From IMG/VR virus record IMGVR_UViG_3300046822_000346, positions 1 to 56,817 of that record: DNA of 56,817 nt, one strand, 5' to 3'. Below the pieces are notes generated by a model. The model did no database searches, was not told where the DNA came from, and saw nothing but the letters and a program-made list of their open reading frames with translations. Made by a program: the position numbers and the translations under genes. The number at the start of each line of letters is the position of its first letter. Positions within the stretch are counted from its first letter, which is position 1. This DNA comes from a virus (Duplodnaviria; Caudoviricetes). This document shows positions 4,743 through 56,817 of the stretch, piece after piece.

Positions 4743-4772
4743 TTGCCCTTCGCGCAAGGCATTCGGTATAAT
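4743..4772 (+). promoter_or_regulatory. sigma70-like promoter
   Basis: TTGCCC-N18-TATAAT upstream of the glycosylase gene. Confidence 0.55.
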
Positions 4773-5379: not shown

Positions 5380-5409
5380 TTGATTTACCCGGCTTTCCAG
5401 GGGTATAAT
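5380..5409 (+). promoter_or_regulatory. sigma70-like promoter
   Basis: TTGATT-N18-TATAAT followed by AAGGAGG RBS. Confidence 0.6.
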
Positions 5410-5432: not shown

Positions 5433-6179
5433 ATGACAGCACCAAGCGCGCTCAAGTTGGTCAAACCAGACACCGCTTTGACGACGCTAAAAGTTCTGGT
5501 GTACGGGACCCCCGGCGTAGGCAAAACCTGGCTGGCTGGCACTGCCGAAGATGACGCCCGTTCTGCGCCTGTGCTGTTCTGCGACGTGGAAGCCGGAGTC
5601 CTTACCATTCGCAAGCGCGGAGCTCAGCTGGACGTGGTGCGCATCGAGAGTCTCGAAGACCTGCGCCTTGTCCACAAGGAGCTCCGCTCCGGCAAGCTCC
5701 CGCACCGCACGGTGGTCATCGATTCGCTTACCGAACTTCACAAGGTGACCCTGCGAGACATCTCGAGCGGTAAACCGATTCCATCTATCCAGGATTGGGG
5801 CGTTGCGGCCAAGAAGCTCGAAGAGATCATTTCCTACTTCCGCAACCTCCCAATCAACCTCGTATGCACAGCTCTGGAGATGGACTTCAAAGACGAGCAG
5901 ACCGGCGGTGTTTCGCTGCGTCCCTCGCTTCCCGGAAAGCTCTCGGCAAGCGTAGGTGGATACTTTGACGTTGTCGGACGTCTGACGGGAAAAGCCACCA
6001 AAGGTGCCGATGGCACGATTCGCGTAGAGCGCCAGTTGCAGGTGCAAAACCACAGCAACGTAACTGCTAAGGATCGATCGGACGCCCTTGGCACAAGTCT
6101 GGCAAATCCGACTATACCACACATGCTGGATGTTATTCTTGGCCCTGCTCCTGAGAAGCCGGCAACCAAGAAAGCTTAA
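5433..6179 (+). CDS. AAA_24 / Sak4-like ATPase (single-strand annealing recombinase)
   Basis: YGTPGVGKT, DVEAG, VVIDSLT, AKDR motifs; next to an SSB-like gene. Confidence 0.85.
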   Translation: MTAPSALKLVKPDTALTTLKVLVYGTPGVGKTWLAGTAEDDARSAPVLFCDVEAGVLTIRKRGAQLDVVRIESLEDLRLVHKELRSGKLPHRTVVIDSLTELHKVTLRDISSGKPIPSIQDWGVAAKKLEEIISYFRNLPINLVCTALEMDFKDEQTGGVSLRPSLPGKLSASVGGYFDVVGRLTGKATKGADGTIRVERQLQVQNHSNVTAKDRSDALGTSLANPTIPHMLDVILGPAPEKPATKKA

Positions 6180-6206: not shown

Positions 6207-6641
6207 GTGAAACTCAACTTTGACCAGGTGTCCTCAGATCAGGGCACATTCGAACCACTCCCCGAGGGCGACTACGTAGCTACCGTGTTCGAGGTCAAGC
6301 TCGCCAAGTCCAAGACCTCCAACAACGAGTACTACAACTGGACGTTCCAGGTTCAGACGCCCAGCAGGTTCCGCAATCGTCGCCTGTTCCACATCACCAC
6401 GCTCGCGGAACAGTCGCTCTGGAACCTCAAGCAGACTATCGAAGCCGTCACCGGCGAGCCACTTGTCGGCGACTATGACCCCAGTGAGCACATTCGCGAG
6501 TATCTCGGTCGGCCGGTACTCCTCCGGGTTACCCAGGAAGAGTATCAGGGCACGATGCGCAACCGGGTCAAGCGCGTGTCTCCAGCTCCGGTCGCAGTAG
6601 CCGCGGGCGATGCTTCCGACGAGGACGACGACACCTTCTAG
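6207..6641 (+). CDS. DUF669-like ssDNA-binding protein
   Basis: FEPLPEGDY, EEYQG..RNRV, acidic tail DEDDDTF. Confidence 0.85.
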   Translation: MKLNFDQVSSDQGTFEPLPEGDYVATVFEVKLAKSKTSNNEYYNWTFQVQTPSRFRNRRLFHITTLAEQSLWNLKQTIEAVTGEPLVGDYDPSEHIREYLGRPVLLRVTQEEYQGTMRNRVKRVSPAPVAVAAGDASDEDDDTF

Positions 6642-7170: not shown

Positions 7171-7652
7171 TCACAGGACTCAAGACCAAGATCGTCAAAC
7201 AATTTTCGTTCGACGCGAGCCACCAACTCCCGCAGCATTCTGGGCAGTGTGCTCGTCTGCACGGCCACACCTACAAAGTGGAACTCGAGTTGACGGGCGA
7301 GGTGAAACCCGTCGACGGCCGCTCTGATGGCGGCATGATCGTGGACTTTGGGGACGTCAAGAAAGCCTTCGAGGCCACGTGCGGGTTCCTGGATCACCGT
7401 TTCCTCTGCCCGCTACGCAACCGGGATGTCAACGTGCTCCACGCCGAGAATGAGTTCGTCACCATCCAGTATCTCAACACCGGCCAAGAGCTGTGCCTGC
7501 CGCGGAGCAATGTGGCATTCGTAGACGTAGAGAACACCACCGCGGAACTTTTGGCCGCGTTCATCTACGAGCGGCTGATATTCCTAGTTCCCGAACTCAC
7601 CGCCGTGCGGGTCTGGGAAACGCCGACCGCCTTCGCGGAGGTGCGCCCATGA
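7167..7652 (+). CDS. queD: 6-carboxy-5,6,7,8-tetrahydropterin synthase
   Basis: FDASH, CARLHGHTY, GMIVDFG, LDH, TTAE, VWET. Confidence 0.95.
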   Translation: MITGLKTKIVKQFSFDASHQLPQHSGQCARLHGHTYKVELELTGEVKPVDGRSDGGMIVDFGDVKKAFEATCGFLDHRFLCPLRNRDVNVLHAENEFVTIQYLNTGQELCLPRSNVAFVDVENTTAELLAAFIYERLIFLVPELTAVRVWETPTAFAEVRP

Positions 7653-8425
7653 AGATCAACATGCCAGATGCAACCCAAGCGGTCGAGACCAAGATGCCGG
7701 TACTCGAAGTGTTCGGGCCGGTGGTACAAGGCGAGGGTGCGCTCATCGGGCGCCAGACATTCTTTGTACGCCTGGGGTATTGCGACTACCATTGTTCTTG
7801 GTGTGACACCCTGTACGCGGTAGATCCCAAGACGGTGCTAGAGCAGGCCAGATGGCTTACCACCACCCAGATCGTCAACCAGATCATGACCCTCGATATG
7901 TTCCGCGACAGCAGTTACCGCACGCCGTGGGTGACGATCTCGGGCGGCAACCCCGCGCTGCAGAAGAAGGGCCTAGGACCTCTGATCCACATGCTCCAGA
8001 TGCTCGGGTACCAAGTCGCGGTGGAGACGCAAGGCTCGTACTGGAACGATGCCCTGGAACTGGCGGACCTCGTGACGTGTTCGCCGAAACCCCCCAGCTC
8101 GGACATGATCACGAACTGGAAGATCTTGGACAAGTTCGCAGCCCGATTGGCGGGGCGTATCGCGTTCAAGGTAGTCGTGTTTGACGAGACAGACTACAAC
8201 TACGCCAAACAGGTGTACCAACGCTACCCACAGTTGGCGGCCCACGATTTCTACCTGCAGGCCGGAACTCCGGCCTTGGGCGATGATCCGGCCCCGTATG
8301 CTCAGGCCTTAGTTGAGCGGCTCACGTGGTTAGTGGATCGTGTGACAAGTGACCCGGACATGGCGTACGCCGTGCCGCTGTTCCAGATGCACACGCTGCT
8401 CTTCGGACAGCGGCGGGGGATCTGA
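7649..8425 (+). CDS. queE: 7-carboxy-7-deazaguanine synthase (radical SAM)
   Basis: VQGEG, CDYHCSWCD CxxxCxxC, SGGNP, VETQG, SPK, QMH. Confidence 0.95.
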   Translation: MKINMPDATQAVETKMPVLEVFGPVVQGEGALIGRQTFFVRLGYCDYHCSWCDTLYAVDPKTVLEQARWLTTTQIVNQIMTLDMFRDSSYRTPWVTISGGNPALQKKGLGPLIHMLQMLGYQVAVETQGSYWNDALELADLVTCSPKPPSSDMITNWKILDKFAARLAGRIAFKVVVFDETDYNYAKQVYQRYPQLAAHDFYLQAGTPALGDDPAPYAQALVERLTWLVDRVTSDPDMAYAVPLFQMHTLLFGQRRGI

Positions 8426-8426
8426 C

Positions 8427-8621
8427 ATGGTAGACGTTTCACCCAACGGACCATACGGGCGCGCCAAGCTCTCGGTGAACCTAGCCCCGCAAACACCCCT
8501 TGAGATACCATTGCCCGGTATTTCAAGCGGCCAGGATCAATGGAACGAGGTCTTCGCACGGCTGTTGGCCCAGATTGCTGAAGAGACGCATCGCATCGCG
8601 CGAGCGTTGGAGCGCAGATAA
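8427..8621 (+). CDS. hypothetical protein
   Basis: Short ORF filling the queE-folE gap, coupled to folE (TAATG). Confidence 0.5.
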   Translation: MVDVSPNGPYGRAKLSVNLAPQTPLEIPLPGISSGQDQWNEVFARLLAQIAEETHRIARALERR

Positions 8622-9310
8622 TGGACAGTGTACAAGATGCTCCGATCCAGGGGATCGCGGCCGCCATGCCCGAGGGGCGCATATTCAACGACGTTGCCCG
8701 GTTCTTGACGAGCAACCTGTCAGAGGAGGGCGCTACCTTAGACGAGCGATACAACGCCATCCACGCGGCTACCGCGATACTGCTAAAGGCTATCCGGGCG
8801 GATTGGGACCCAGGAACCAAAGACACTCCGGCACGCGTAGCCAAGATGTGGCTAGAAGAATTGGCCGCGGGTGTGGACTACGATCCAGCAGAACATCTGA
8901 GCAAGGTGTTCGACGAAGATTTTCGCGAGATGGTAGCGGTACATGACGTACCGTTTTACTCGACCTGCTGTCATCACCTTGTTCCCTTCTACGGGGTAGC
9001 CCATATTGGGTACATTCCGCAGGGCAAAGTGGTCGGACTCTCTAAGCTCGCCAGAGTCCTTGAAGGCTATTCTCGACAACCCTCTGTTCAGGAACGTATT
9101 ACGGCACAGGTGGCCGATGCGATCGAGGAGCACCTACAGCCCCTTGGTACGATCGTGGTGCTGCGAGCGACACACATGTGCATGTGCATGCGGGGTGTCC
9201 AGAAACCTGGCAGTCTCACCACTACCTCAGCAGTACGAGGCGTCTTCAAAGAGCGCGACAATCTCGCGCGCGAGGAGTTCTTCGCGTTGGTGGGTCGCGG
9301 CAATGGCTGA
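8621..9310 (+). CDS. folE: GTP cyclohydrolase I
   Basis: DTPARVAK, CCHHLVPF, GLSKLAR, VQER, HMCMCMRGV. Confidence 0.95.
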   Translation: MDSVQDAPIQGIAAAMPEGRIFNDVARFLTSNLSEEGATLDERYNAIHAATAILLKAIRADWDPGTKDTPARVAKMWLEELAAGVDYDPAEHLSKVFDEDFREMVAVHDVPFYSTCCHHLVPFYGVAHIGYIPQGKVVGLSKLARVLEGYSRQPSVQERITAQVADAIEEHLQPLGTIVVLRATHMCMCMRGVQKPGSLTTTSAVRGVFKERDNLAREEFFALVGRGNG

Positions 9311-13555: not shown

Positions 13556-13810
13556 CTACTTCTTGTCTTGGCTGGCGCGCACGGCTGTGACGTACGTCTT
13601 GAACAGCTCGAACGCGTTGTCAGCGAAATACTGGTACATGTCCTCGACCATGTCTGGATCGTTCCAATACCCGTCCAGCATGTCAACTGCTTTTTCGGCG
13701 GTTTTGTCGAGCTCTTCGAGCATCGTGGCCTTGGCCTGGTCTACTGACTGTGGGATGGTAACCACCTCCGGAATCTGTTCGAGTGGCGCGACACTTGCGT
13801 GCCATCTCAT
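13556..13810 (-). CDS. hypothetical acidic protein, possibly leaderless
   Basis: ATG lies 6 nt after TATAAT of a cassette promoter. Confidence 0.6.
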   Translation of the reverse strand: MRWHASVAPLEQIPEVVTIPQSVDQAKATMLEELDKTAEKAVDMLDGYWNDPDMVEDMYQYFADNAFELFKTYVTAVRASQDKK

Positions 13811-13894
13811 GTTTTAATTATATGCCAGAAAACATGAGATGGCCCGCCGGTTACCAGCCAATTTTGAAGTCAATTCAAAATTGGCTGGCAGCAC

Positions 13895-14194
13895 TTATTT
13901 GTCTAACTCTTTCACGAAGGTCGCGACCGCGGCGTCATCTTCGAGTGCCCTGACAACCTCACTTAGTTGTTCGACCATCAGATCCGCGAGCGTGACCTCT
14001 TGTGCCATCTCCGGAGCCTCTTTCCGGTAGTAGTCCATGTCTTCTTTCGCTGCTGCGAGGAGTGCCGCGGTGTTGATGTATGCGCGCAACATCGCGACAC
14101 GATCTTGCGTATCCTCGGCATTGAATTTGTCGCTGTTGGCACCAGTCCAAGTACCCACGTAAGTGTCCTCCACGAGGTCGCGGGACAAGTCCAT
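13895..14194 (-). CDS. hypothetical protein
   Basis: Acidic helical ORF in the leftward cassette; start uncertain. Confidence 0.55.
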   Translation of the reverse strand: MDLSRDLVEDTYVGTWTGANSDKFNAEDTQDRVAMLRAYINTAALLAAAKEDMDYYRKEAPEMAQEVTLADLMVEQLSEVVRALEDDAAVATFVKELDK

Positions 14195-14217
14195 CGGAAC
14201 TTGTCCCGCTTGATCTC

Positions 14218-14508
14218 CTAGCTCTCCATCACCGTGATGGTGGGAAACACGTTCCAACCTTGGAGCTCGAATACGACGCGCGCCTCAGGAAACTCGTCGC
14301 ACAGTTGAAGTGCCAGCGGCGCGAGTTTGTCGCGCATCAGCTTCATCTTGTCCGGCGTCGTCATTCCCGGGACACTATACATGATCATCACGCGTCCCGG
14401 CACCGTGCGATAGATCGACAAGCCAAGGCTTGCGCGATCGTGAGGACGCGCTAGCGCGTCCACGGTGCCAGCGAAAGTGCTGACACGATCAAAGAAATCT
14501 TGGTTGAT
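14218..14508 (-). CDS. hypothetical protein (probable ATC start)
   Basis: GGAGGT-N7-ATC; downstream of cassette promoter 14569(-). Confidence 0.6.
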   Translation of the reverse strand: MNQDFFDRVSTFAGTVDALARPHDRASLGLSIYRTVPGRVMIMYSVPGMTTPDKMKLMRDKLAPLALQLCDEFPEARVVFELQGWNVFPTITVMES

Positions 14509-14909
14509 GCGAACCACCTCCAATACGTGGTTTGGATCCAGATGACGTACTTCACATCATCTGGTTCTATTATATGCCAACCTGCGTTGAAAGGCACGCC
14601 GGTAAACTGCCAGTTTTGCGTTCTCATAAAAACTGAAGGCATCGCGTTTATATGCGAATCTACAAGCAGCTACGTAACTACGCGCTGGGAGGCGTTGCCG
14701 CGCGTAGATTCGCATTGTAGCGCGCTGTAGCACGCAGGCCTTATTATAATAGGTACAGCTACCGCGCAAGTATGAGAAACACCTTCAGTTTCGTGGAACC
14801 TGGAAAACTGGCGCAATCCCGGCGTGCCTTTCGTTGGCGGCTGGCATATAATTAAAGCAGAGATAAGGGAAATGGAAGTACCAAGTCTCAAAGTTTTGGA
14901 GGTGTTGAA

Positions 14910-15113
14910 ATCAACACTCAGAAGCCTCAGGTGTCGCGGGTTGTCTTCGAAGGTATCAAGGCTTGTCGGGATGCCGGCAAGTACAATATGTTCGAGGTCA
15001 ACAGTGTAATCCACTGGCTCGAGTCGCATGGGCACATCGAGGCGGCGGATTGGGTGGAGCGCAACCGCGGCGAGTACGCTCGCGGGATCATGTACGGGTT
15101 CGACGTGATCTAG
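14910..15113 (+). CDS. DUF5049-like protein (probable ATC start; GTG alternative at 14931)
   Basis: GIKACRDAGKYNMFEVNSV...NRGEYARGIMYG pattern; GGAGGT-N6-ATC. Confidence 0.7.
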   Translation: MNTQKPQVSRVVFEGIKACRDAGKYNMFEVNSVIHWLESHGHIEAADWVERNRGEYARGIMYGFDVI

Positions 15114-15119
15114 CTCCAA

Positions 15120-15147
15120 GGTGGTACGGTCGCAAGACCGTACCACC
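15120..15147 (+). terminator. 12-bp GNRA-capped hairpin after the stop
   Basis: GGTGGTACGGTC-gcaa-GACCGTACCACC; no U tract. Confidence 0.5.
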
Positions 15148-15283
15148 GAGCCCCACCTGAGGCAGTTCGAACCAATTTTGAAAACTGGCAGATTGCCGGC
15201 GTGCCATCCTACGCAGGCTGGCATATAATTAAAACATAAGAGCGGCGGGTGTTCCGCCACCAACAAATCAAAGGAGCCCAACA

Positions 15284-15583
15284 ATGGCCACTATGAAGAC
15301 CCGCATCATCAACAACCTCACCACCACCATCAACTACTACAACAATCCTACGGCCTGTGAGGCCACCATCAACCGGCTGCGGGAGCTGGGCGCTCCCCAA
15401 ACTACTATCAACTCCACCATCTCCTTCCAGGCGGAGATGCGGGCAGAGCTGCCCAAACTCCTCACCTTCATCAAAACTCTTTCTCACCATTCTTCCTTCT
15501 CTTCCATCCAGTCCGCCGCGCGAGCGGCCGGCTTCACCGGCGACACTTACATGGCCATCGACCTGCGAGATCCGGGGGTGTAA
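15284..15583 (+). CDS. cassette hypothetical protein
   Basis: Own promoter and AAGGAG RBS. Confidence 0.75.
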   Translation: MATMKTRIINNLTTTINYYNNPTACEATINRLRELGAPQTTINSTISFQAEMRAELPKLLTFIKTLSHHSSFSSIQSAARAAGFTGDTYMAIDLRDPGV

Positions 15584-15795
15584 CCCCCACCTCGCTGGTG
15601 TCCAAGCCTCGGCTCGCACCATGATTGCCAAACGCGCAAGCGGGCGGGCAGAGCAGCTCCGGCATAGTCTCCTTCGGGTACGAGTCGAGGCTTGGACATC
15701 AGTTTTTGAAACTGGCATCTAACCGGCGTGCCTTTCCGAGCTCCCTGGCATATAATTGATACATAAGATGGTTCGGGAGTTCGGAGGTACAAAGC

Positions 15796-15978
15796 ATGCG
15801 GAACGGGTACAGCATCAAGACCACGCAAGACCTGCAGGCCGAAGCACTCGAGGCGCAGGCACTGATGGACGAGTGCGAGCAGTACCGCACAGGCAGTGCG
15901 GATGACGATGACGCGATCGATGCCTGGATTACCAAGATGATGGAGGCCGGGATCGATCCCTTCGAGGAGGTGGCCTAG
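15796..15978 (+). CDS. cassette small acidic protein
   Basis: Own promoter and GGAGGT RBS. Confidence 0.75.
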   Translation: MRNGYSIKTTQDLQAEALEAQALMDECEQYRTGSADDDDAIDAWITKMMEAGIDPFEEVA

Positions 15979-16238
15979 TGAACTTCGATTTTCAGCGCGC
16001 TTGGAATGCGCGCATTGAGACTATCACGCATCTGATGTCGCTGGCCGGGAATAGCCCTTACGACTGGATGTTCACTACTGACAAGTTCGGCAATGTCGTG
16101 GCAGAGTTCATTGGCGGTGGCACACTCGACGATCAAATTCGTCGCGCGCGCTGGCTCGTGGACAGCTTGACTGGTAACGCCAGCATTCTCGGTGTTCGGC
16201 GTCGTGGCACTCAAGTGTGGATTGCCCTGATGCCGTAG
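15978..16238 (+). CDS. hypothetical protein
   Basis: GAGGAGG RBS; coupled to the upstream stop. Confidence 0.65.
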   Translation: MNFDFQRAWNARIETITHLMSLAGNSPYDWMFTTDKFGNVVAEFIGGGTLDDQIRRARWLVDSLTGNASILGVRRRGTQVWIALMP

Positions 16239-16253
16239 AAAGGAACGATACCC

Positions 16254-16346
16254 GTGACACGTTTCGCTGCAGCCATCGTACTCCTGTTCCTCTTGTTTGT
16301 CATGATGGTGGGTGCCTACGTCGCGTTTGGCGTCATCATCCGGTAG
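16254..16346 (+). CDS. 30-aa single-TM peptide
   Basis: AAAGGA RBS; MTRFAAAIVLLFLLFVMMVGAYVAFGVIIR. Confidence 0.55.
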   Translation: MTRFAAAIVLLFLLFVMMVGAYVAFGVIIR

Positions 16347-16495
16347 CTCCCGTACCACGGTGTCCAAGCCAACCCGGCTTGGACACCAATTTCCAAAATT
16401 GGTCGGAAACCGGCGTGCCATCGCGCGAGGTCTGGCATATAATTAAAGCATAAGAGAGCGCGGGAGTTCCGCGACAAGGTTCGGAGGACAAAGCA

Positions 16496-16807
16496 ATGCA
16501 GCCATTCACGACCACCCGCGAACAGCAGATCAAAGCCTACCACAAGATCTACGCGCAACTCAAGCGCGCCGGCTTCATCGCCAGCACAGTGATGGCCTGG
16601 GAGGACAGCCACAGTTCGATCCTGCGCCTGGGCGCCAACAACGCCCAGATTCCCAAGAAAGAGGATCGCGAGGCGCGTGAGATGTTCTTGGCGCAGGTGT
16701 TCGCCTTCCTCGAGTCCAAAGGGTACCAGGTCACCTTCGAGCCGTTTCGTCAGATCAGTGACTACAGCTTCATGAACGCCCGCTTGACCATTTACTTCGA
16801 GTTCTAA
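16496..16807 (+). CDS. cassette hypothetical protein
   Basis: Own promoter and GGAGGA RBS. Confidence 0.75.
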   Translation: MQPFTTTREQQIKAYHKIYAQLKRAGFIASTVMAWEDSHSSILRLGANNAQIPKKEDREAREMFLAQVFAFLESKGYQVTFEPFRQISDYSFMNARLTIYFEF

Positions 16808-16905
16808 AACTGGTGCCAGCCAGGCGTGCCATTTCAGCACGCCTGGCATATAATTAAAGCAGAGATGGGGACGTACCGCATCTCACAGGTTTGGAGGACA
16901 CGCAC

Positions 16906-17250
16906 ATGGCCAAGAATCTTGCGGACATGACTGACGAGCAGATCATCGACAACATCGACCACGCGCAGGCGACCTACAACGATGTGTACAACACAGAGGC
17001 CGGCTTGACCGCGGGTATGAAAGAGGCCATCCTCGAACACCTCACTGCCTACCTCACCGAATTGCAAGTCGAACAGCGTCGCCGAGACGGCAAGACCGTG
17101 ACCATCACGTTGGGGTCCGAAGCTTGGGGTTACTGGAAGCTACTGGCACAGCGCGAGGGCATCGACCCTGAAACCTACTTGCAGACCTTCGTTGGGGACG
17201 TTGATTGGCTCGCAGACGAGTGGGCCAAAGTGACTTACATCGAAGACTAA
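16906..17250 (+). CDS. cassette hypothetical protein, possible C-terminal RHH-like segment
   Basis: Own promoter and GGAGGA RBS; TVTITL...LAQREGIDPETYL. Confidence 0.7.
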   Translation: MAKNLADMTDEQIIDNIDHAQATYNDVYNTEAGLTAGMKEAILEHLTAYLTELQVEQRRRDGKTVTITLGSEAWGYWKLLAQREGIDPETYLQTFVGDVDWLADEWAKVTYIED

Positions 17251-17337
17251 AAACTGGTGTCCAAGCCGGCGTGCCATTCCACCGGCTTGGGCATATAATT
17301 AAAACATAAGATAGTTCATTAGTTTGGGGGCAACGCA

Positions 17338-17628
17338 ATGTCCAACTTCAACACGCCACGCGTCTTCGTCGAGGCCAAGCCTCGCACGCGGCGAACCGCC
17401 AGCAACAAGCCTTCGATCGTAGTCAAGGCCAACAACGGCATCACAGTAGTGCGTTTCAACTACAAGCCAGATCCTACAATCCGCGCACGTCTGCTGGCGC
17501 ATGACTTCGCTTGGGATTATGCCTCCGGCAAGTGGACATTGTTGGGCGAAATGCCGCAAGCCGACGTCTTCGCCATCGTGCGCGGTGACTGCCAGTGCTC
17601 GCAGTGCAAAGGATGGTGGACGAAATGA
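17338..17628 (+). CDS. cassette hypothetical protein
   Basis: Own promoter; VVRFNYKPD..IRARL...FAW pattern. Confidence 0.7.
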   Translation: MSNFNTPRVFVEAKPRTRRTASNKPSIVVKANNGITVVRFNYKPDPTIRARLLAHDFAWDYASGKWTLLGEMPQADVFAIVRGDCQCSQCKGWWTK

Positions 17629-17900
17629 TCACCAAGCAACAGCTCCGAGAACTCCTGCTAGCGGCCGGCGTTCCTGAGATGCAGGGCGGCATCATCCGCA
17701 CGCCTGGTTTCCACATCCTGTTCGCAGACAGCCCACTCACCATCACCTGGGACGACGGCAAGTCCTATTGGGATTCGTGGGAGCGCTTCGCTTCACAGCG
17801 TGGCGGCATCGAACAACATATCCTGCCTGTCCTGCAAGCAGCCGGCGTTACTAGCCGCCTCACCGACATTGCCTACGCGGTCGTCCTCGAAGTGCGCTAG
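17625..17900 (+). CDS. hypothetical protein
   Basis: ATGA overlap with the upstream gene. Confidence 0.65.
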   Translation: MITKQQLRELLLAAGVPEMQGGIIRTPGFHILFADSPLTITWDDGKSYWDSWERFASQRGGIEQHILPVLQAAGVTSRLTDIAYAVVLEVR

Positions 17901-18030
17901 GCGGCTTGTACGCCAGTTTTTGCCAGTTTTGGAAACTGGCAAAAACCCGGCGGGCCTTTCCTTGGTATCTGGCATATAATTAAAACATAAGAGAGCGGGA
18001 CAGTCCGCACAAGGTTTGGAGGCAAGCACA

Positions 18031-18678
18031 ATGTCGTACACGAATCAAATGACCAGCCAGAAGATCATCGCAGTCCTCGGCAAGGCCGGCTTCACCAAGT
18101 CCACAAGCTCCACCACGTCAGTCCGCGGTTGGTACAACATCACTAAGGGCTTCGAAGTCCGCGAAGAAGCCGACACCGAGTACGGCGCGCATTCCTACAA
18201 CCACAAGATGTATATCCGTAGCAAGACCATCAACGGCTGGATCGTGTGTTTCACCAACGGCACCACGATCATGGGCGCAGTCAAAGAGGCCGAGAAGATC
18301 AACGCGCTAGTGCAGCGGTACCTCGAAGCACTGCAGGCGGCCGGGATCGAGTGCCTGTTGCGCCAGGACAATTACCACACATTCGTGTGGGTTCCGATGC
18401 AAGATAAGATCGCGCCAGTCAAGGCTGAGAAGTCCGCGACAAGCGACAACACAGACAGTGTCGAACTCCGCGCGCGAGTGTACCACAAGCTTCATGCGGC
18501 AGGGTACGCCAAGCAGGTTAAGATCGAGGTCACAAGTGGCGGCCTGTGGATCACCGCGCGCGAGGCTTCCGAGGCCGAAAGCGTTCTGCGCGATGTGTAC
18601 GGCGTCCTGAATGCCAGCTCCAAGTACGCAGCGTCCTACGCCGATGCAAGACAGGCGTTGTTGGTGGCGGCGATGTAA
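18031..18678 (+). CDS. cassette hypothetical protein
   Basis: Own promoter and GGAGG RBS. Confidence 0.75.
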   Translation: MSYTNQMTSQKIIAVLGKAGFTKSTSSTTSVRGWYNITKGFEVREEADTEYGAHSYNHKMYIRSKTINGWIVCFTNGTTIMGAVKEAEKINALVQRYLEALQAAGIECLLRQDNYHTFVWVPMQDKIAPVKAEKSATSDNTDSVELRARVYHKLHAAGYAKQVKIEVTSGGLWITAREASEAESVLRDVYGVLNASSKYAASYADARQALLVAAM

Positions 18679-18932
18679 CGCGCTACAACGCGATTTAAGC
18701 CGGCGCAGATTACCAACCTAGGTAATCATGCGCTGGCTTTGTTTGACCCGCGTAAAATCGCTTTAGAACGCGATGCTTGGATAACGCGACGTAGCTCCCT
18801 TTGGGCTTGTACACCAGTTTTGCCAATCTTAAAAACTGGCGGCTTACCCGGGTGCCAAACAACGTTGTTTGGCATATAATTAAAACAGAGATGAGGAGGT
18901 ACCAAGTCTCAAAGAGTTTGGAGGCAAACACA

Positions 18933-19163
18933 ATGACACACTTCGACAACAGCTGGATGACACCGGCGGCGCGGAGGGTCTGGCAGCAGATCGAGGACGG
19001 CGCGGTGTTCGTAATTTGGAGCGATGCGATGGGCGTAGGCGCGTGTAGCATCGAAGTGAACGGTGTGGACGTGCCAGTGAAGAAGAATGTGGGACAGCAG
19101 ATTCCAGTGCAGCGCATGATCAAGATCAGCGACAAGCCGCAAAAGTTCGTAGTGCGTAAGTAA
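18933..19163 (+). CDS. cassette hypothetical protein
   Basis: Own promoter and GGAGG RBS. Confidence 0.7.
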   Translation: MTHFDNSWMTPAARRVWQQIEDGAVFVIWSDAMGVGACSIEVNGVDVPVKKNVGQQIPVQRMIKISDKPQKFVVRK

Positions 19164-19245
19164 GCAGTTTATATGCCCGGCGTGCTTTTTCAGCACGCCG
19201 GGCATATAATTAAAACATAAGAGTTCGATAGTTTGGAGGCGCACG

Positions 19246-19548
19246 ATGTACAACGCGAAGCAGTCCAAGGCCACGATGCACAAAGTGTACAGCATCCTGC
19301 AACGCGCCGGCGTAGCCAATCAAGTCAGCCTGTATCGCAACGCCAACAACAGTCTCGCGGTCCTGTTCCGCGACGCGCGTCTGGCCGATGCCAGTCCGCT
19401 GCGCAACGAAGTCATGCACGCCGCACTGGCCGCGCTGACCGGCAAAGTCAATGTCATCGCGCGCGTCGATGGCTTCTATCACGCGCTCCATGTTCTGCCG
19501 GCGGACAGCACCGGCCTCGAGTATCGCATCGCAAAAAGCGCACTGTAG
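19246..19548 (+). CDS. cassette hypothetical protein
   Basis: Own promoter and GGAGG RBS. Confidence 0.75.
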   Translation: MYNAKQSKATMHKVYSILQRAGVANQVSLYRNANNSLAVLFRDARLADASPLRNEVMHAALAALTGKVNVIARVDGFYHALHVLPADSTGLEYRIAKSAL

Positions 19549-19561
19549 TTTGGAGAAGCCC

Positions 19562-19759
19562 ATGCCTGGCAAAGATGAGTTCAACGCAGTCGTCCTGTTC
19601 TTCGTCCGCGAACTGGCCAAAGGCAGTAACGGCGAGAACGTGATCAAGTTCCTACAAGCCGTTGAACAAGGACGGCTACAAGCCGCGCGCCTCGACTTCG
19701 AGCTTTATCACGACGCCGATCAAACGATCAACTGTTTCCTGCTAGACATGCTTGACTAG
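19562..19759 (+). CDS. hypothetical protein
   Basis: GTTTGGAGA RBS. Confidence 0.65.
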   Translation: MPGKDEFNAVVLFFVRELAKGSNGENVIKFLQAVEQGRLQAARLDFELYHDADQTINCFLLDMLD

Positions 19760-19919
19760 CATCTGCAAGGTAACGTTCAGAGCCATCCGCGCTCTGAACG
19801 TTACCGCGCACAAACGTTCAGAGCCAATAAAAGCCGCCGAGTCCCGAATCCCGTGCCTTCTCCGCAAATCCCAGGTACAATATCTACAGAGCCTAACGCA
19901 TTCCCCGAGGAGGCACCCG

Positions 19920-20150
19920 ATGCAGGGTCCAATCCAGATTACAGTGTACTCGACCGGCGACTACGCCGCGTTTGATCAGCCCGCATCGGTCGTTGTACAA
20001 GACGGCGAACGATGCCTAGTGTGCGGCCGCACGGTGGGGCCGCGCAGTGAAGTAGCCATTGGCTTCCAGGTGCTGACGCCGCACGGCGCTGGCGTCGTGT
20101 GTTTAGAGGATGCCGACGTACGCGAGTCGGCTGAGGAGTTCCACGCATGA
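19920..20150 (+). CDS. small Zn-finger protein
   Basis: GAGGAGG RBS; CLVCG...C. Confidence 0.65.
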   Translation: MQGPIQITVYSTGDYAAFDQPASVVVQDGERCLVCGRTVGPRSEVAIGFQVLTPHGAGVVCLEDADVRESAEEFHA

Positions 20151-20521
20151 GCAACAACGGCAACGGTTGGGATCCCGTCAAGTTTGATCAGTGGCTGACT
20201 ACGCCGCCGGATGAGGACGAGGATCTAGAGCAGCCGCCTGAACCGGGTATGACCTGGAATCCGGCGCGCGAAGAGTGGTCACACGAACCCCTGACCCACG
20301 ACGAGTGGGAGAGCTTGACGCCTAGCGAACAGGCGTTCTACGAGGAGCCGCTGCAGGACACGTTCGAGGTGGACCTCAAAGACCTCGCCAGGCTCCAGCC
20401 GGACTTCGCAGCCGGCCTACGCGACGAGATCAGCAAGGTATTCCAGGTGCCGGCGCAATTGCTGCAGCCGCGCAATGATAACCAAAGCGTATCCGAAGGA
20501 GGTGGAAGCAAACAAAACTGA
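20147..20521 (+). CDS. acidic hypothetical protein
   Basis: GAGGAG RBS; ATGA overlap. Confidence 0.65.
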   Translation: MSNNGNGWDPVKFDQWLTTPPDEDEDLEQPPEPGMTWNPAREEWSHEPLTHDEWESLTPSEQAFYEEPLQDTFEVDLKDLARLQPDFAAGLRDEISKVFQVPAQLLQPRNDNQSVSEGGGSKQN

Positions 20522-20637
20522 TTCCAAAATTGGCTTGAAACCGGCGTGCCGTATGCCGGTGGATGAGGTACAATATCAATAGAAGCCACGCAAAATGAGT
20601 GCGGGCAGCAGATCAAGCAGTTCGGAGGAACACAGCA

Positions 20638-21450
20638 ATGGCCAAGTCCAAGATTCAGAGCGACGAGATCCAGAGCGACGAGATCGCGGCTGAGAACGAG
20701 GAGCTCAGCGGCTTCGACGACGAGTCCGAGATCGAAGATGACGGCGAGGCGGACGAGGCTGACGACGAAGAGTCCGAAGGCGAAGAGTCCGAAGGCGAAG
20801 AGCCGGCCGAAGAGAGCACCGAGTCCGATGGCGATGAGCAGCCTAAGGCCGCCAAGCGCGGCGGGCGGCCTAAGTTGGAGCGCGACGAGAAGGAGTGCAA
20901 GACGCACCCGCACTACTTCCCAGCCGAGCCGAGCCTGCGGCCGATCGATGAATTCGCCAACGGCGGTAAGCACTCGTACTGCCGCCGCTGCATGAGCCTT
21001 CGCTCGAAGGACGTGCGCGACGCCAAGAACGCGGCCGAGGGCAAGGAGCCACGCGCTCCGAAACAGCCTAAGGCGGCGAAGGAGCCAAAGGAGGCGAAAG
21101 CCTCCACCAGCTCCAAGCGCGGTGGCAAGAAGGCCAAGGTCGAGCCGCAGAACAAGGCGGACCTGACACTCGGCGCCGATCCAGCCGAGAACACTCCGTT
21201 CCTGGTCATCGACAACCATACGCATCAGGCACTGCCCGGCGGCTTCGCATTCCGTGAGTACGAGCTCTTCGGCGACGAGTACGCCCGCGTCCGCGGCGTA
21301 CATTGGACCGACCGCGAAGATGTGACGGCGCAGATGGTCACCTTCCCGCTTGACGCGGTCGTGCCGGCCATGGAGCAGGACGTCGAGCGTGCCGAGTCCG
21401 CTCGCCTGATCCAGATCGCGGCGGCTGAGGCGGAGCCGGTCGAGGCGTAA
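20638..21450 (+). CDS. protein with an Asp/Glu-rich N-terminus, Zn-finger and Lys-rich linker
   Basis: Own promoter, GGAGGA RBS; CKTH...YCRRC; terminator follows. Confidence 0.8.
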   Translation: MAKSKIQSDEIQSDEIAAENEELSGFDDESEIEDDGEADEADDEESEGEESEGEEPAEESTESDGDEQPKAAKRGGRPKLERDEKECKTHPHYFPAEPSLRPIDEFANGGKHSYCRRCMSLRSKDVRDAKNAAEGKEPRAPKQPKAAKEPKEAKASTSSKRGGKKAKVEPQNKADLTLGADPAENTPFLVIDNHTHQALPGGFAFREYELFGDEYARVRGVHWTDREDVTAQMVTFPLDAVVPAMEQDVERAESARLIQIAAAEAEPVEA

Positions 21451-21473
21451 CACCGCACGCGGTTCGAGGCATC

Positions 21474-21511
21474 GAAGCAGCGTTGGATCGTTGGATCCAA
21501 CGCTGCTTTTG
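21474..21511 (+). terminator. intrinsic terminator
   Basis: AAGCAGCGTTGGATC-gttg-GATCCAACGCTGCTT followed by TT. Confidence 0.8.
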
Positions 21512-21780
21512 CTCTCCCGGCTTGATGCGGGATCAAACCTGCACAGAACTGCGATCTGAGACCATAGCGGCATTCGCGCAGAGCTTTGAAAATACGCAGG
21601 TCAAACGGAAATGCAGGCAGATCTGACGGGGCAGCGTAAAATCGCATTGTAGCGCGATGTATTCCAATCCAAGAATATGTACGACCAGTTTTTCTGGCGG
21701 GCTGGATTTATCTGTTGGCTTGGCATATAATTAAAACAAGGGAAGCGGGATGGACCGCAACCCGATCGGAGGTAAGTAAC

Positions 21781-22077
21781 ATGCAACGCAACGATCTCAC
21801 GTGGCTCAGCATCGAGTTGGTCCAGGACTTCGAATTGTACGTGTCCATCTCCCACGAGGGCGAGGACATCAGCGCGCTGGATTGGTTGGACGAAGCGCTC
21901 GAGTACCTCAGCGAGACCTACCACCAAGAAGGTTGGCCGGTCAGCGTCGACGCCGAAGGTCAGATCCAGTTCGACCACGAGGTGGAAATCGCCAAGGAGA
22001 CCATACAGCAGTACGCCGCAGTGCTGGTAGGTGCGTACTTCATCCACCAGCAGTGGAGCGCGTTGTCGGGCGAGTAA
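21781..22077 (+). CDS. cassette acidic hypothetical protein
   Basis: Own promoter and GGAGGT RBS. Confidence 0.75.
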   Translation: MQRNDLTWLSIELVQDFELYVSISHEGEDISALDWLDEALEYLSETYHQEGWPVSVDAEGQIQFDHEVEIAKETIQQYAAVLVGAYFIHQQWSALSGE

Positions 22078-22177
22078 AACCAATTTTGGAAACTGGTGGC
22101 TGCCCGGCGTGCCATCCACCAGTTTCTGGCATATAATTAATTCATAAGAAGGTTCGAGAGTTCAGGAGGCAAAGCAA

Positions 22178-22555
22178 ATGCGGCAGTTCATGAGCAACGA
22201 AGAAAAGCGAGCTTGGCGGGAAGCCGCGCGCACACAGCGCGACACGACTCCAAGCGAGTGGGTCCTGGCCGAAGTCGTTCGCAACAGACATCTGGACGCG
22301 ACGTTCGTGGAAGGCGCGATCGTGTACGCGCGGCGCGAGCAGGACGGTTGGTTGGTAGTACGCGTCACACCAAGCGTGGTACGGCCAACAGATCCAACGT
22401 ACGGAGTCGTAGTCCTGAGCACCGAGGCCAAGGCCAAGTGGAGCCTTAAGTCGATCACACGCAACGGCGAAGTATGGCATCTGGACAAGACTGATGCAGT
22501 GGCCGCAGAGCGCGTTGTCAAAGCGTGGAGAGAAGGAAAACTGGCGGACATGTAG
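22178..22555 (+). CDS. cassette hypothetical protein
   Basis: Own promoter and AGGAGG RBS. Confidence 0.75.
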   Translation: MRQFMSNEEKRAWREAARTQRDTTPSEWVLAEVVRNRHLDATFVEGAIVYARREQDGWLVVRVTPSVVRPTDPTYGVVVLSTEAKAKWSLKSITRNGEVWHLDKTDAVAAERVVKAWREGKLADM

Positions 22556-22565
22556 TCCGCCAGTT
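22535..22565 (-). terminator. terminator of the late (minus-strand) operon
   Basis: AACTGGCGGAC-atgta-GTCCGCCAGTT; T run on the minus strand; between convergent genes. Confidence 0.65.
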
Positions 22566-22580
22566 CCAGGACAAGACGCA

Positions 22581-23063
22581 TTAGCCAAGCCATGACGCGT
22601 CTTGTCCGACCGCCGCAGTTTGTATCGTAGGTTGTTCAGTAGCCGAGGACACGATGTTGGATTTGGCAGCCGGATCGGCTTGTAGCGGTTGCTTTGCCAG
22701 CGTCTGACCGAGCGCACTTGCCGCGCTCTCGATGTCCTTAGCCAGTGGCGTGTCAGTGCTGATGGTCTTGCCGCTACCGCTACCTTTGACGAACAGAAAC
22801 ACAGTGTTGGCGCCAGCAGCTTGGAGCGCGGCTTGGATTCCGTAGCTTGGCAGGTCCTGCGGGTTGAACTGTCCGGTGAAAGCGACGTAGCTGCAGATCA
22901 GCCCCAGGTTGATCACCACGTTGAGCATGCGGATAGCGCTGTTGAGCTGATCGTTGTTCTGCTTGAGTGCTGGGATGTCGGCCAGAAACGGTTTGAGAAA
23001 TGCCAAGATCACGTTGGTGATCAGGATCATCGCCGCCCCGAGGCCGAGGCTGTCGATCGGCAT
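22581..23063 (-). CDS. putative holin
   Basis: Two to three TM segments; next to the lysin candidate. Confidence 0.6.
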   Translation of the reverse strand: MPIDSLGLGAAMILITNVILAFLKPFLADIPALKQNNDQLNSAIRMLNVVINLGLICSYVAFTGQFNPQDLPSYGIQAALQAAGANTVFLFVKGSGSGKTISTDTPLAKDIESAASALGQTLAKQPLQADPAAKSNIVSSATEQPTIQTAAVGQDASWLG

Positions 23064-46160: not shown

Positions 46161-46895
46161 CTACAGATCTCCGCCAGTGTGCAGATCGAGACGTGCCACT
46201 TCGCAGGTCTCTTCCCAGGTGCAAGCATACGGCGTCGTATCGTACACGTGCGCCTGATACAGGGCCTGGCGCCGCTCCGAACACGTGCCACACTTGCCGC
46301 AGTGAATATCGCCACCCTCGTAACAGGACCACGTCTCCTGCACCGGCACACTATAAATCTCAGCCATACGCGCGATGTTCGTCTTGGACAACATCACGAA
46401 CGGCGCCCGCAGGATCGGCAGTGGGTCCGCCCATTCATTGCCCAATCGCAACGCGGTATTGAGTGCTGCGATGAACTCCGGCCGACAGTCGGGGTAGATC
46501 GCATGATCCCCTGCATGTACCCCAGTATACACCCTGGAGGCATGTTCCGCCACCGCAATCCCATAGGCGATGGAGAGCATGATCGCGTTGCGGTTCGGCA
46601 CAACCGTTGCCTTCATGTTGTCGGCAGCATAGTGGCCCATAGGCACTGCGCCGCCGTGAGCTGTCAGCGCCGAGCCGTGGAGCAGTTCGGCCATGAAGTC
46701 CATCTCGATCACGATGTGCTCGGCATGTAGCCGTCTGGCAGTTTGTGCCGCGAACTGGAGCTCTTTGCGATGCCGCTGGCCGTAGTCAAAACTCAGCAGG
46801 AGCAGGTCATCCTGCACGGTCCCATTGCCGCTCACCACATGAGCAAGCGTGACGCTGTCCAAGCCGCCGCTACAGATCACAATAGACTTCGCCAA
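46161..46895 (-). CDS. queC: 7-cyano-7-deazaguanine synthase
   Basis: SGGLDS, YGQRH, VPNRN, YPDCR, SCY..CGKCGTC. Confidence 0.95.
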   Translation of the reverse strand: MAKSIVICSGGLDSVTLAHVVSGNGTVQDDLLLLSFDYGQRHRKELQFAAQTARRLHAEHIVIEMDFMAELLHGSALTAHGGAVPMGHYAADNMKATVVPNRNAIMLSIAYGIAVAEHASRVYTGVHAGDHAIYPDCRPEFIAALNTALRLGNEWADPLPILRAPFVMLSKTNIARMAEIYSVPVQETWSCYEGGDIHCGKCGTCSERRQALYQAHVYDTTPYACTWEETCEVARLDLHTGGDL

Positions 46896-49813: not shown

Positions 49814-50080
49814 ATGTCACCGAGCACTCCGGCACCAAACAGTCGGCCACTTGAGCCGCGCGTCCAAGTCACGCTCCAGATGCCGCAAACCTTGTACCAG
49901 GCCGTCGAACGGCTCACACGCCAAGGCGAGCGCCACGCTTTCCTGTTGAACATTATCCAACAGGATCCAGCAGTCGCCAAAACCGTCCTCGCGCTCCAAG
50001 CAGAGGCGGCAGAACGGGCCCGCTTTGAGGAGCTGGGCCGCAAGGCTGCGGAGCAAGGACTCCTGACCCCTGGCACGTAA
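49814..50080 (+). CDS. ribbon-helix-helix-like protein
   Basis: AAGGAG RBS; RVQVTLQMPQTLYQAVE...R..F. Confidence 0.65.
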   Translation: MSPSTPAPNSRPLEPRVQVTLQMPQTLYQAVERLTRQGERHAFLLNIIQQDPAVAKTVLALQAEAAERARFEELGRKAAEQGLLTPGT

Positions 50081-50169
50081 ATGGCCATTTGGCGCCATCA
50101 GGGCATATGACGTACATTCCCTGTGCTTGCTGTGACCAGCGGCACAGGGAGTTTTTTGCGCGAAATCCG

Positions 50170-50520
50170 AGCCACGATTCCCGATCGCTGATCGATCATG
50201 AGCGATATTTCCCTATCGGGAATCGCGGCGAATGCACACTAGCTATACGCTGCCATGCCCTCATGACCGATATGACCGTTCCATGAGGGGGTAATTATAT
50301 ATAATGAGAGAAAGTGTTGGATTTGTATATATGGATCACAGTTTTATCGATCATATCGATCATCTCTTATTGTCAACCCACATAAATTGTGCAGGGGCCA
50401 CATTACCGATCGCATTTGGCTCGCTCATTATCGCTCATCGATCGGGAATCATGTTCACTTCTCTCTGTGGCACGAATAGTATCCAGATAATCCAAAAAGC
50501 CCGGTTGCAGTTTTGATCGT
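50170..50520. other. putative replication origin
   Basis: Noncoding AT-rich core flanked by inverted repeats; nine GATC sites; upstream of the primase. Confidence 0.5.
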
Positions 50521-50661
50521 GCCGATATATACTAAGAGAGTACGCACGCACTGCAGGTCAATCAGCGTATACTAACTCCCATATCCTCACTGCAGTACGT
50601 GCTGTACCTTCCTCGCGCGTTACACCAGGCGTTCACACCACAGGAAAGGAACGGACATACC

Positions 50662-56660: not shown

Positions 56661-56693
56661 AAACTGCGCAGGATTGACTCCTGCGCAGTTTTG
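56661..56693 (+). terminator. intrinsic terminator
   Basis: AAACTGCGCAGGA-ttgac-TCCTGCGCAGTTT. Confidence 0.75.
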
Positions 56694-56709
56694 CATATTG
56701 GGCAGGTAC

Positions 56710-56817
56710 CCGGCGTGCCTTTTCCATCTGCCTGATTTATAATGAGATCATGGAAGGCGGACCGGCATGACGGCCGCCAAGCGCAGCAGTTTTGGAGGTA
56801 CCACGCATGGCAAGCAC
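56710..56817 (+). promoter_or_regulatory. cassette-type promoter, RBS and start of a truncated ORF
   Basis: CCGGCGTGCC..TATAAT(56738), leader hairpin, TTTTGGAGGT, ATG at 56807. Confidence 0.7.

Follow-up and report, generated by a model that had tools for sequence, protein, structure and literature searches.

Here, we analyzed the genome of an uncultured tailed phage from soil metagenomes, assembled as a single contig of 56,817 bases (IMG/VR record IMGVR_UViG_3300046822_000346, the whole of which is referred to as the window), and found that its region 13811-22555 is an array of statistically unambiguous promoter/hairpin modules. The array very probably represents the early transcription architecture of a novel soil phage. 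We consider it probable that the region is the early small-gene region of this virus and that it is built of 15 autonomous promoter/hairpin mini-operons fired by the host polymerase. Such an arrangement is known from T4-like phages; here, it occurs in unrelated sequence and in an unrelated phage. The initial annotation had described about 15 cassettes, each with its own copy of a repeated element heading one to three short open reading frames (ORFs), and our analysis agrees: the 15 units comprise 23 ORFs with plausible ribosome sites, and each module heads 1-3 of them. Within units, genes overlap or abut (TAGTG at 15976, ATGA at 17625 and 20147).

The core of the module, GGCATATAAT, is present in 13 exact copies, 11 on the plus and 2 on the minus strand, all within 13817-22137, exactly as counted and placed before. 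With up to 1 mismatch there are 15 matches, compared with 1.48 ± 1.15 expected from 100 shuffles (largest, 5). Both previously noted TACAAT variants (19876 and 20569) are present, as is the related copy with its -10 hexamer at 56738 (copy 16), but the latter probably heads the replication module rather than a small cassette. A profile built from the core recognizes 15 good copies (E ≤ 2e-8), and the copy at 19876 weakly (E = 0.0026). Members match such a profile by construction, and its informative part is the absence of others: no further copies were detected beyond weak noise in the window or in 42 other loci. All 11 copies of TGGCATATAAT found by scanning the window lie within 13700-22600, as do 17 of the 18 copies of AAAAYTGG. 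Among the 10 copies of CCGGCGTGCC in the window, 8 are in the same interval, one, at 56710, belongs to copy 16, and one, at 10749, is a stray within the DNA polymerase gene. GTTYGGAGG, reported as the recurrent ribosome-binding motif, indeed has 7 of its 8 window copies in the array.

A consensus was derived from the alignment of 160 nucleotides (nt) around the 16 sites. Its 5' part consists of CCAGTTTT..AAAACTGG, a C, 7 nt, CCGGCGTGCC, 14 nt and TGGCATATAAT; the latter is followed by TAAAACATAAGA, a variable stretch, (G)TTTGGAGG, about 8 nt and the ATG codon. Thus, the repeat recognized in the initial annotation is real, but the element extends over about 100-130 nt rather than 10-40 nt and includes an upstream dyad and usually a strong stem-loop. 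All 16 copies are intergenic and oriented towards an ORF with a GGAGG-type site, which is located 6-9 nt before the start codon in 15 copies; in the copy at 17294 (copies are designated here by the position of the -10 hexamer), the site is GGGGG. Among the 16 copies, 14 have a perfect TATAAT as the -10 hexamer and 2 have TACAAT. The proposed GTGCCW-N17-TATAAT pairing is borne out in 11 copies, with GGGCCW (two copies), GTGCCG, GTGCTT and TGGATT in the remainder, and the 17-nt spacer ends in TGGCA. Downstream of the hexamer, the seventh base (A97) is invariant and the preceding C (C96) is kept in at least 90% of copies, following an A/T-rich discriminator; an A seven bases after the hexamer is typical of a start site in place and kind, and transcription is predicted to begin there. 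Counted from this position, the predicted leaders measure 29-58 nt and fall into three types: those starting with AGAGATG..CATCTC (copies 14847, 16849 and 18875), those with a GCGG..CCGC stem, and short, stemless ones. Leader hairpins had been ascribed to many copies; they are present in 6 of the 16 leaders, which fold clearly better than shuffles (z-score, z, -1.86 to -2.36), but 'many' was too generous, with the other 10 folding no better.

Stem-loops were identified in 11 of the 13 plus-strand inter-unit regions, with z of -2.9 to -8.3 and only 0-3 of 200 shuffles being equally stable. In long gaps, the stem-loop directly follows the stop codon. In the five gaps of 62-75 nt, the minimum-energy fold places a hairpin over the -35 box and spacer of the next promoter, significantly so in three cases (16849, 17294 and 19205) and not in the other two (20569 and 22132); examples include CCAGGCGTGC..GCACGCCTGG at 16820 and an 18-base-pair (bp) perfect palindrome at 19169-19208. 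The inter-unit stem-loops share no common sequence. A clear U-run follows only two of them, at 18697-18739 and 21474-21509; the others may act in attenuation, stabilization of the upstream mRNA or tail-less termination. Of 15 copies examined, 13 have an A/T-rich dyad (CCAGTTT..AAACTGG, or TTTT..AAAA at its core) spanning about -64 to -49, and 2 lack the right arm. In 11 of the 13, the right arm ends 35 nt before the -10 hexamer, and the left arms lie about 1-3 nt or about 10-11 nt, i.e., one helical turn, from the right arm. Left-arm complementarity averages 6.3 of 8 positions, compared with 4.75 ± 0.19 in shuffles (largest, 5.31), and the arms co-vary between copies (CCAGTTT/AAACTGG versus CCAATTT/AAATTGG). 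The dyad may represent an UP-like A-tract, a hairpin or an operator.

Near-identical promoter modules, each with its own small gene unit, imply a co-regulated set, in line with the initial annotation. Upon infection, host RNA polymerase with the housekeeping sigma factor would fire all modules simultaneously, with 13 mini-operons read rightward and 2 leftward from a divergent point at about 14.6-14.8 kb. If the inferred promoter activity, early timing and terminator function hold, about 23 small proteins, probably host-takeover or anti-defence proteins, would be expressed highly, equally and independently. The 3' stem-loop of nearly every unit would stop or attenuate read-through or stabilize the upstream mRNA, and in short gaps it would be folded over the -35 box and spacer of the following promoter, thereby insulating each unit; with its own module and an inter-unit stem-loop, each unit looks like an insulated mini-operon. 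Copy 16 would drive the replication module, so that one signal class would switch on both gene sets. With a 17-nt spacer, six copies reach 10 of 12 matches to the sigma-70 consensus. Domain scans detected no sigma-70 region 2 or 4 domains encoded in the record; with neither a sigma domain nor an integrase in it, the main holoenzyme of the host is the simplest candidate. Sigma-54 promoters are characterized by GG and GC elements 10 nt apart (-24/-12). A sigma-54 reading of TGGCATATAAT was dropped upon alignment, since TA rather than GC is found 10 nt after the GG of TGGCA, and a sporulation-sigma reading was likewise dropped on inspection of the alignment.

Several observations weigh against the reading as insulated mini-operons fired by the host holoenzyme. 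The -35 part (GTGCCW) matches TTGACA at only 4 of 6 positions, and better canonical promoters exist elsewhere, namely, TTGATT at 5380 and TTGCCC at 4743 (both with 18-nt spacers) and TTGAAA-N17 at 49209. The conserved 10-mer CCGGCGTGCC exceeds the contact of sigma region 4, so that another factor could read it, and with the record estimated to be 70% complete, a regulator or polymerase could lie on the missing part. Most stem-loops are devoid of a U-tract, and hence efficient intrinsic termination is not assured; the stem-loops in the regions before 20569 and 22132 are not significant against 200 shuffles each, and neither are the hairpins of the 10 leaders mentioned above.

We compared 20 of the 23 cassette ORFs against Pfam and PHROG. 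Only the product of 14910-15113 matched a family, DUF5049 (37.9 bits; cut-off, 28.7), as well as PHROG 8677; for the other 19 scanned proteins, no Pfam or PHROG family was found above threshold. Such family-less proteins are typical of early hyperplastic regions. The translations of 17 of the 20 are also public gene calls, on 5-12 contigs each. The ORFs of the cassettes had been considered unrelated, but this does not apply to four of them, starting at 16496, 17625, 18031 and 19246, whose products are remote paralogues with a common domain of about 45 residues (helix, L..AG[FVY], strand), present three times in a protein of 215 amino acids (aa) and twice in one of 91 aa. In leave-one-protein-out profile searches over all 1,110 window ORFs, the left-out paralogue always ranked first after the training set (E = 6e-6, 4e-5, 0.04 and 0.09; best outsider, at least 0.35), which makes the paralogy, as judged from sequence profiles, solid for two of the four proteins and suggestive for the other two. 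Identity among the paralogues is just 21-23%, indicating that the duplications are old. Among 1.84 billion representatives, the 215-aa protein has 8 small homologues (94-144 aa), none of which matched Pfam above the cut-off; two long repetitive matches were taken as spurious. An AlphaFold model of the family (predicted local distance difference test, pLDDT, 78.8; predicted template modelling score, pTM, 0.72) had no match in the PDB at E ≤ 0.001 and matched only uncharacterised phage proteins in BFVD (best E, 2e-5), and cluster look-ups for this small-protein family returned no names.

The resemblance to T4-type repeated early-promoter elements suggested in the initial annotation proved to be close. 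According to Arbiol et al. 2010 (PMC2839356) and Comeau et al. 2014 (PMC4122927), the promoter early stem-loops (PeSLs) comprise a terminating stem-loop, an AT-rich stretch, a sigma-70-like early promoter, a Shine-Dalgarno site and a start codon, and flank ORFans in hyperplastic regions. As described there, conservation is spread over about 100 bp (PMC2839356), and each T4-like subgroup has its own PeSL consensus, even a middle-promoter version (PMC4122927). The present module agrees with this inventory in every part. Like these elements of T4-like myoviruses, the modules are composite intergenic repeats of about 100 nt that densely flank small ORFans in an early region, and five of seven PeSL features are found, namely, the sigma-70-like promoter, the upstream stem-loop, the A/T-rich dyad, the Shine-Dalgarno site with a start codon and the flanking of ORFans. 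By contrast, the genome is not T4-like: the ten largest proteins include a tape-measure protein and no T4-like marker, and the portal, terminase and polymerase are not of that type. Furthermore, CCGGCGTGCC takes the place of TTGACA or TTTACW on the -35 side, and the stem-loops, besides lacking a common sequence, frequently extend into the promoter. PeSLs are defined by recombination at the elements; for the present array, such exchange is a hypothesis.

Among Gram-positive phages, the closest functional analogue is the host-takeover module of Bacillus phage SPO1, which, according to PMC6873191, comprises about 26 small early genes within 12 kb, organised into many short operons with strong promoters and ribosome sites typical of highly expressed genes; several of the products shut down host processes. 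However, the SPO1 block lies in the terminal redundancy, repeat-mediated shuffling does not figure in that description, and no sequence relation was found. A literature search for the 10-mer retrieved only unrelated primer lists, and one for similar repeats in other phages only the PeSL papers; this was no survey, and hence we do not claim that such arrays in siphoviruses are unreported. Conserved inverted repeats accompany the early promoters of Streptomyces phage phiC31, and cluster A mycobacteriophages carry stoperators; both kinds of site are defined by a known repressor. The present array shares with both the many copies of one short dyad or asymmetric site beside early promoters, through which one regulator could control all, but differs in that no regulator was identified and the dyad is more hairpin-like, with variable loops.

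No close relative was recovered from the phage, IMG/VR or pattern-scanned collections. Searches of 50,697 phage records with the region (megablast and blastn) and with the 215-aa cassette protein (tblastn) returned no match. Terminase relatives are at most 43% identical, and IMG/VR contains 9 loci related through the polymerase (≤31%) and 27 through the portal (≤43%). Four of the polymerase-related loci carry no repeat arrays, their largest repeat families having 2-4 copies. The 19-nt core and the two-box pattern gave 0 matches on viral contigs and were found on 2 metagenome and 3 genome contigs, in one copy each; the two metagenome matches, being isolated and with no array around them, were taken as chance. 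Portal homologues in a 5.8-billion collection reach 60% identity over 70% coverage, or 63% over 60%, and give no host call, only scattered names (Atrimonas, Aeribacillus, Nitrospirae). The region itself is contained in 24 soil or rhizosphere metagenome runs, with no RNA runs among the listed holders. Contigs of four other runs (X2, X4, X6 and X8) cover it in short pieces, and the listed pieces are letter-identical; variant contigs of 6.8 and 7.4 kb, carrying P0151 and P0153, also exist. Three joints, each on a single contig, were noted in the other-run contigs, one connecting 15732 to 19199 with 12 other letters between, and two with 21-letter sides. Short joints of this kind often stem from other organisms, and we rejected them as evidence of unit deletion; the spacer of the first matches neither parent promoter, and its short side has 33 letters. 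In this joint, from run X2, the -35 box of copy 15751 is linked to the -10 flank of copy 19205 via the 12 foreign letters with the box-to-box distance kept, so that it appears to represent an additional copy of the module, belonging to a variant or relative, rather than a clean deletion.

The modules might be activator-dependent middle-type promoters, in which a phage protein reads the CCGGCGTGCC box instead of a -35 element and the array fires after an immediate-early step. A precedent is the Mot box, read by MotA in T4. Consistent with such an activator, the box is 10 nt long and nearly invariant, and its poor fit to TTGACA occurs in a genome that has canonical TTGAxx promoters elsewhere; moreover, promoter middle stem-loops (PmSLs) carrying a Mot box and a -10 hexamer are known from phage nt-1 (PMC4122927). 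Nevertheless, family scans revealed neither MotA/AsiA-like nor sigma-like proteins, although many ORF products are uncharacterised; the -35 element retains its T-G and the spacing remains 17 nt, and small ORFan units with very strong ribosome sites typify immediate-early genes, rendering this scenario distinctly unlikely. A somewhat better, if still low, likelihood attaches to the idea that the dyads are operators through which one dimeric phage or host regulator switches all 16 promoters, which would be additional to firing by the host polymerase. Candidate sites are the upstream CCAGTTT..AAACTGG, with its right arm at a fixed distance from the -10 hexamer, and TGCCA-N12-TGGCA across the -35/-10 region, where TGCCA and TGGCA form exact inverted repeats in most copies. 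However, a nucleic-acid hairpin or A-tract geometry accounts better than a single protein site for the co-variation of the arms and the variable loop length. In the second dyad, 17 bp separate the half-sites, which are hence not on one helix face, and the only helix-turn-helix match obtained, in a 308-aa protein, was weak and below the cut-off. As the record is a single metagenome contig, an assembly artefact or chance clustering of promoter-like words has to be considered too, but is exceedingly improbable: 0 of 100 shuffles reach 15 matches, the listed contig pieces from the four other runs agree with the region at every letter, and the ORFs occur on 5-12 contigs each.

It is also conceivable, yet improbable in our assessment, that the repeats serve mainly as recombination sites of a mobile-cassette system, operating through mini-circles as in PeSLs or through capture as in integrons, and that promoter activity is an added benefit. 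PeSLs were shown to recombine and form mini-circles in RB49/phi1 (PMC2839356), and the phage encodes a Sak4-like annealing protein along with a weak match to an SSB family, which makes short-homology exchange mechanistically possible. In the same direction point the remote paralogues in four units, indicating that units were duplicated in the past, the similarity of upstream halves, which does not track that of leaders (Mantel r 0.12, p 0.19, with little power), and the module with another spacer on the X2 contig, suggesting that a further copy or relative exists. Against this, there are no integrase and no attC-like sites in the record, the longest exact identity between copies is 25 nt (median 13) and reaches at least 20 nt in only 9 of 120 pairs, and whole-module identity is 0.61 compared with a baseline of 0.53 for unrelated coding DNA aligned by the same method, which gives no sign of recent homogenisation. 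Neither clean unit deletions nor differing letters were seen in the listed contig pieces of the four other runs, and the duplications behind the paralogues are old. Conservation in blocks at functional boxes is better explained by selection for promoter function than by recent exchange. Overall, the results bearing on recombination were blank or mildly unfavourable to it. A more specific version, in which a PeSL-like mobile cassette arose independently in a high-G+C soil siphovirus, is doubtful but deserves mention: a core of about 25 nt (TGGCATATAAT plus the start region) would, together with Sak4, serve as a micro-homology handle that duplicates, deletes and imports ORFan units pre-equipped with promoter, leader and hairpin, the paralogues being the fossil record of this process. 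Integrons consist of one promoter (Pc) for promoterless cassettes, attC sites and the tyrosine recombinase IntI. Like the present array, integron arrays line up small, mostly unrelated genes with copies of a repeated element between them. However, all 15 units here carry individual promoters, usually along with individual hairpins, and the record, which may be incomplete, encodes no tyrosine recombinase (0 matches to PF00589; positive control, 14 of 14 genomes). Thus, the earlier likening of the array to an integron without an integrase fails on both defining features.

Should the array indeed consist of mini-operons fired by the host polymerase, it would provide a compact set of 16 natural versions of a strong promoter, complete with leader and insulator, from a soil phage that has not been cultured. 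About 23 early proteins would be marked as prime candidates for roles in host takeover or anti-defence, among them a member of a small uncharacterised family seen only in metagenomes and phages. It would also be a test case, outside T4-like phages, for the T4 PeSL principle of regulatory repeats as shuffling points, and if the modules proved to be mobile cassettes, promoter-linked gene shuffling would be a general strategy of phage early regions rather than a T4 peculiarity. The unusual conserved box on the -35 side may reflect the promoter preference of a soil host or a phage transcription factor.

Along the array, the two minus-strand modules come first. Copy 1 (13801..13871; TATAAT at 13822-13817; profile E = 2.7e-17), with a palindrome of 15-bp arms upstream, precedes an ORF at either 13756-13556 (GGAGG-N8-ATC) or 13810-13556 (ATG at the predicted start site), also on the minus strand; copy 2 (14554..14624; -10 at 14574-14569; E = 1.2e-14) precedes ORFs 14508-14218 and 14158-13895. 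The remaining modules, with their ORFs and stems, are on the plus strand. Copy 3 (14796..14868; -10 at 14847-14852; E = 5.7e-16) heads the DUF5049 ORF. Copy 4 (15172..15244; -10 at 15224; E = 3.3e-18) heads ORF 15284-15583 and is accompanied by a separate 12-bp stem-loop at 15120-15147 (z = -6.48). A long stem at 15594-15703 (z = -6.93) lies 5' of copy 5 (15699..15771; -10 at 15751; E = 1e-17), the unit of which contains ORFs 15796-15978, 15978-16238 and 16254-16346, the third gene being a 30-codon ORF with a single hydrophobic helix. Copy 6 (16386..16460; -10 at 16438; E = 2.2e-17), with a stem-loop at 16359-16387 (z = -6.45), is followed by ORF 16496-16807 of the paralogue family, and copy 7 (16801..16870; -10 at 16849; E = 2e-16), with an 11-bp hairpin over the -35 box and spacer (z = -4.68), by ORF 16906-17250. 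Copy 8 (17245..17315; -10 at 17294; E = 2.1e-15) likewise has a hairpin over the -35 box (z = -3.08) and heads ORFs 17338-17628 and 17625-17900, the second of which is a paralogue. In copy 9 (17923..17997; -10 at 17975; E = 5.1e-18), the dyad is extended to 14 bp (z = -2.93), and the downstream ORF, 18031-18678, encodes the protein with three repeats of the paralogue domain.

The terminator-like stem at 18697-18739, followed by a U-rich run (z = -6.35), is located 5' of copy 10 (18823..18896; -10 at 18875; E = 5.6e-15), which precedes ORF 18933-19163. Copy 11 (19163..19223; -10 at 19205; E = 9.1e-13), in which the 18-bp perfect palindrome includes the -10 flank (z = -8.32), heads ORFs 19246-19548 (paralogue family) and 19562-19759. 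Behind a 15-bp stem-loop at 19769-19805 (z = -6.55) lies the degenerate copy 12 (19851..19893; GTGCCT-N17-TACAAT; E = 0.0026 only), with ORFs 19920-20150 and 20147-20521. Copy 13 (20517..20588; E = 1.5e-11), the other TACAAT variant, has a hairpin that is not significant (z = -1.18) and precedes ORF 20638-21450. The second terminator-like stem, at 21474-21509, followed by UUUUG (z = -5.15), is 5' of copy 14 (21685..21747; -10 at 21726; E = 2.1e-08), in which the -35 box has diverged and the ORF is 21781-22077. Copy 15 (22079..22152; -10 at 22132; E = 4.1e-17), again with a non-significant hairpin (z = -0.53), heads ORF 22178-22555, and a closing stem-loop at 22569..22607 (z = -3.77; no strand assigned) marks the end of the plus-strand array, where the convergent minus-strand late genes meet it. 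Copy 16 (56685..56760; -10 at 56738; E = 9e-12) stands apart, with its ribosome site and ATG (56808) running off the end of the window.

Another family of repeats, about 28-30 nt long and containing an ATCGC/GCGAT dyad (GCGTAAAATCGC..GCGCGATG), has members at 14702-14729, 18750-18777 and 21634-21661, with an inverted partial copy near 18680; it is confined to the three long non-coding gaps, where it precedes a promoter module by about 60-120 nt in each case. The units starting at 13756, 14508 and 14910 have GGAGG followed by ATC at 7-8 nt, with no ATG, GTG or TTG at a workable distance, and GGAGGTGGTT-NNN-ATC is common to two of the three; ATC may serve as their start codon. Alternatively, the unit at 13756 could use a leaderless ATG located precisely at the predicted start site (13810), and public gene calls adopt this 84-aa form. 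The acidic protein encoded by 20638-21450 (270 aa) has a very acidic N-terminal third of tandem repeats (15-nt repeats at 20651-20685 and 20766-20802), followed by a Cys/His cluster and then a Lys-rich segment; searches of Pfam, PHROG and the Atlas yielded neither a homologue nor a fold, the Atlas giving no usable match.

The genome has a G+C content of 57% and is classed as a linear virus. Its ten largest ORFs include those for a family A DNA polymerase, a helicase, a primase-helicase, a tape-measure protein, a portal, a large terminase, a major head protein and a head protease, the portal and capsid being of the HK97 type. Rightward replication and nucleotide genes run from about 49.8 kb across the end of the window to 12980, and leftward structural genes from about 49.7 kb to 22581, with the small-gene region between the two blocks. 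The left end opens inside a DUF6011 ORF (1-291), and copy 16 probably heads this ORF and the downstream replication genes. When positions 56808-56817 are joined to 1-291, the frame is kept if the terminal AC, present at both ends, is counted once, as judged by eye. This end-to-end reading frame suggests a circular or permuted genome, and the fit is a hint that the contig closes on itself despite its class as linear and incomplete. The phage is probably lytic; no integrase was seen. Rfam and tRNA scans of the whole window gave no matches. Genes for QueC-like (46161-46895, minus strand), QueE-like (7649-8425, plus strand) and GTP-cyclohydrolase-like (8621-9310, plus strand) proteins suggest phage-made 7-deazaguanine DNA modification. 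The Sak4-like single-strand annealing gene (5433-6179; E = 7.5e-50) and the subsequent SSB-like gene (6207-6641; weak match to phrog_378, E = 1.6e-07), both on the plus strand, lie behind the canonical TTGATT-N18-TATAAT promoter at 5380-5409. Immediately 5' of the primase-helicase gene, a non-coding stretch of about 580 nt (50080-50660), which contains many short repeats of the ATCGATCAT / CGATCG type and an A/T-rich patch at about 50290-50340, may be a replication origin.

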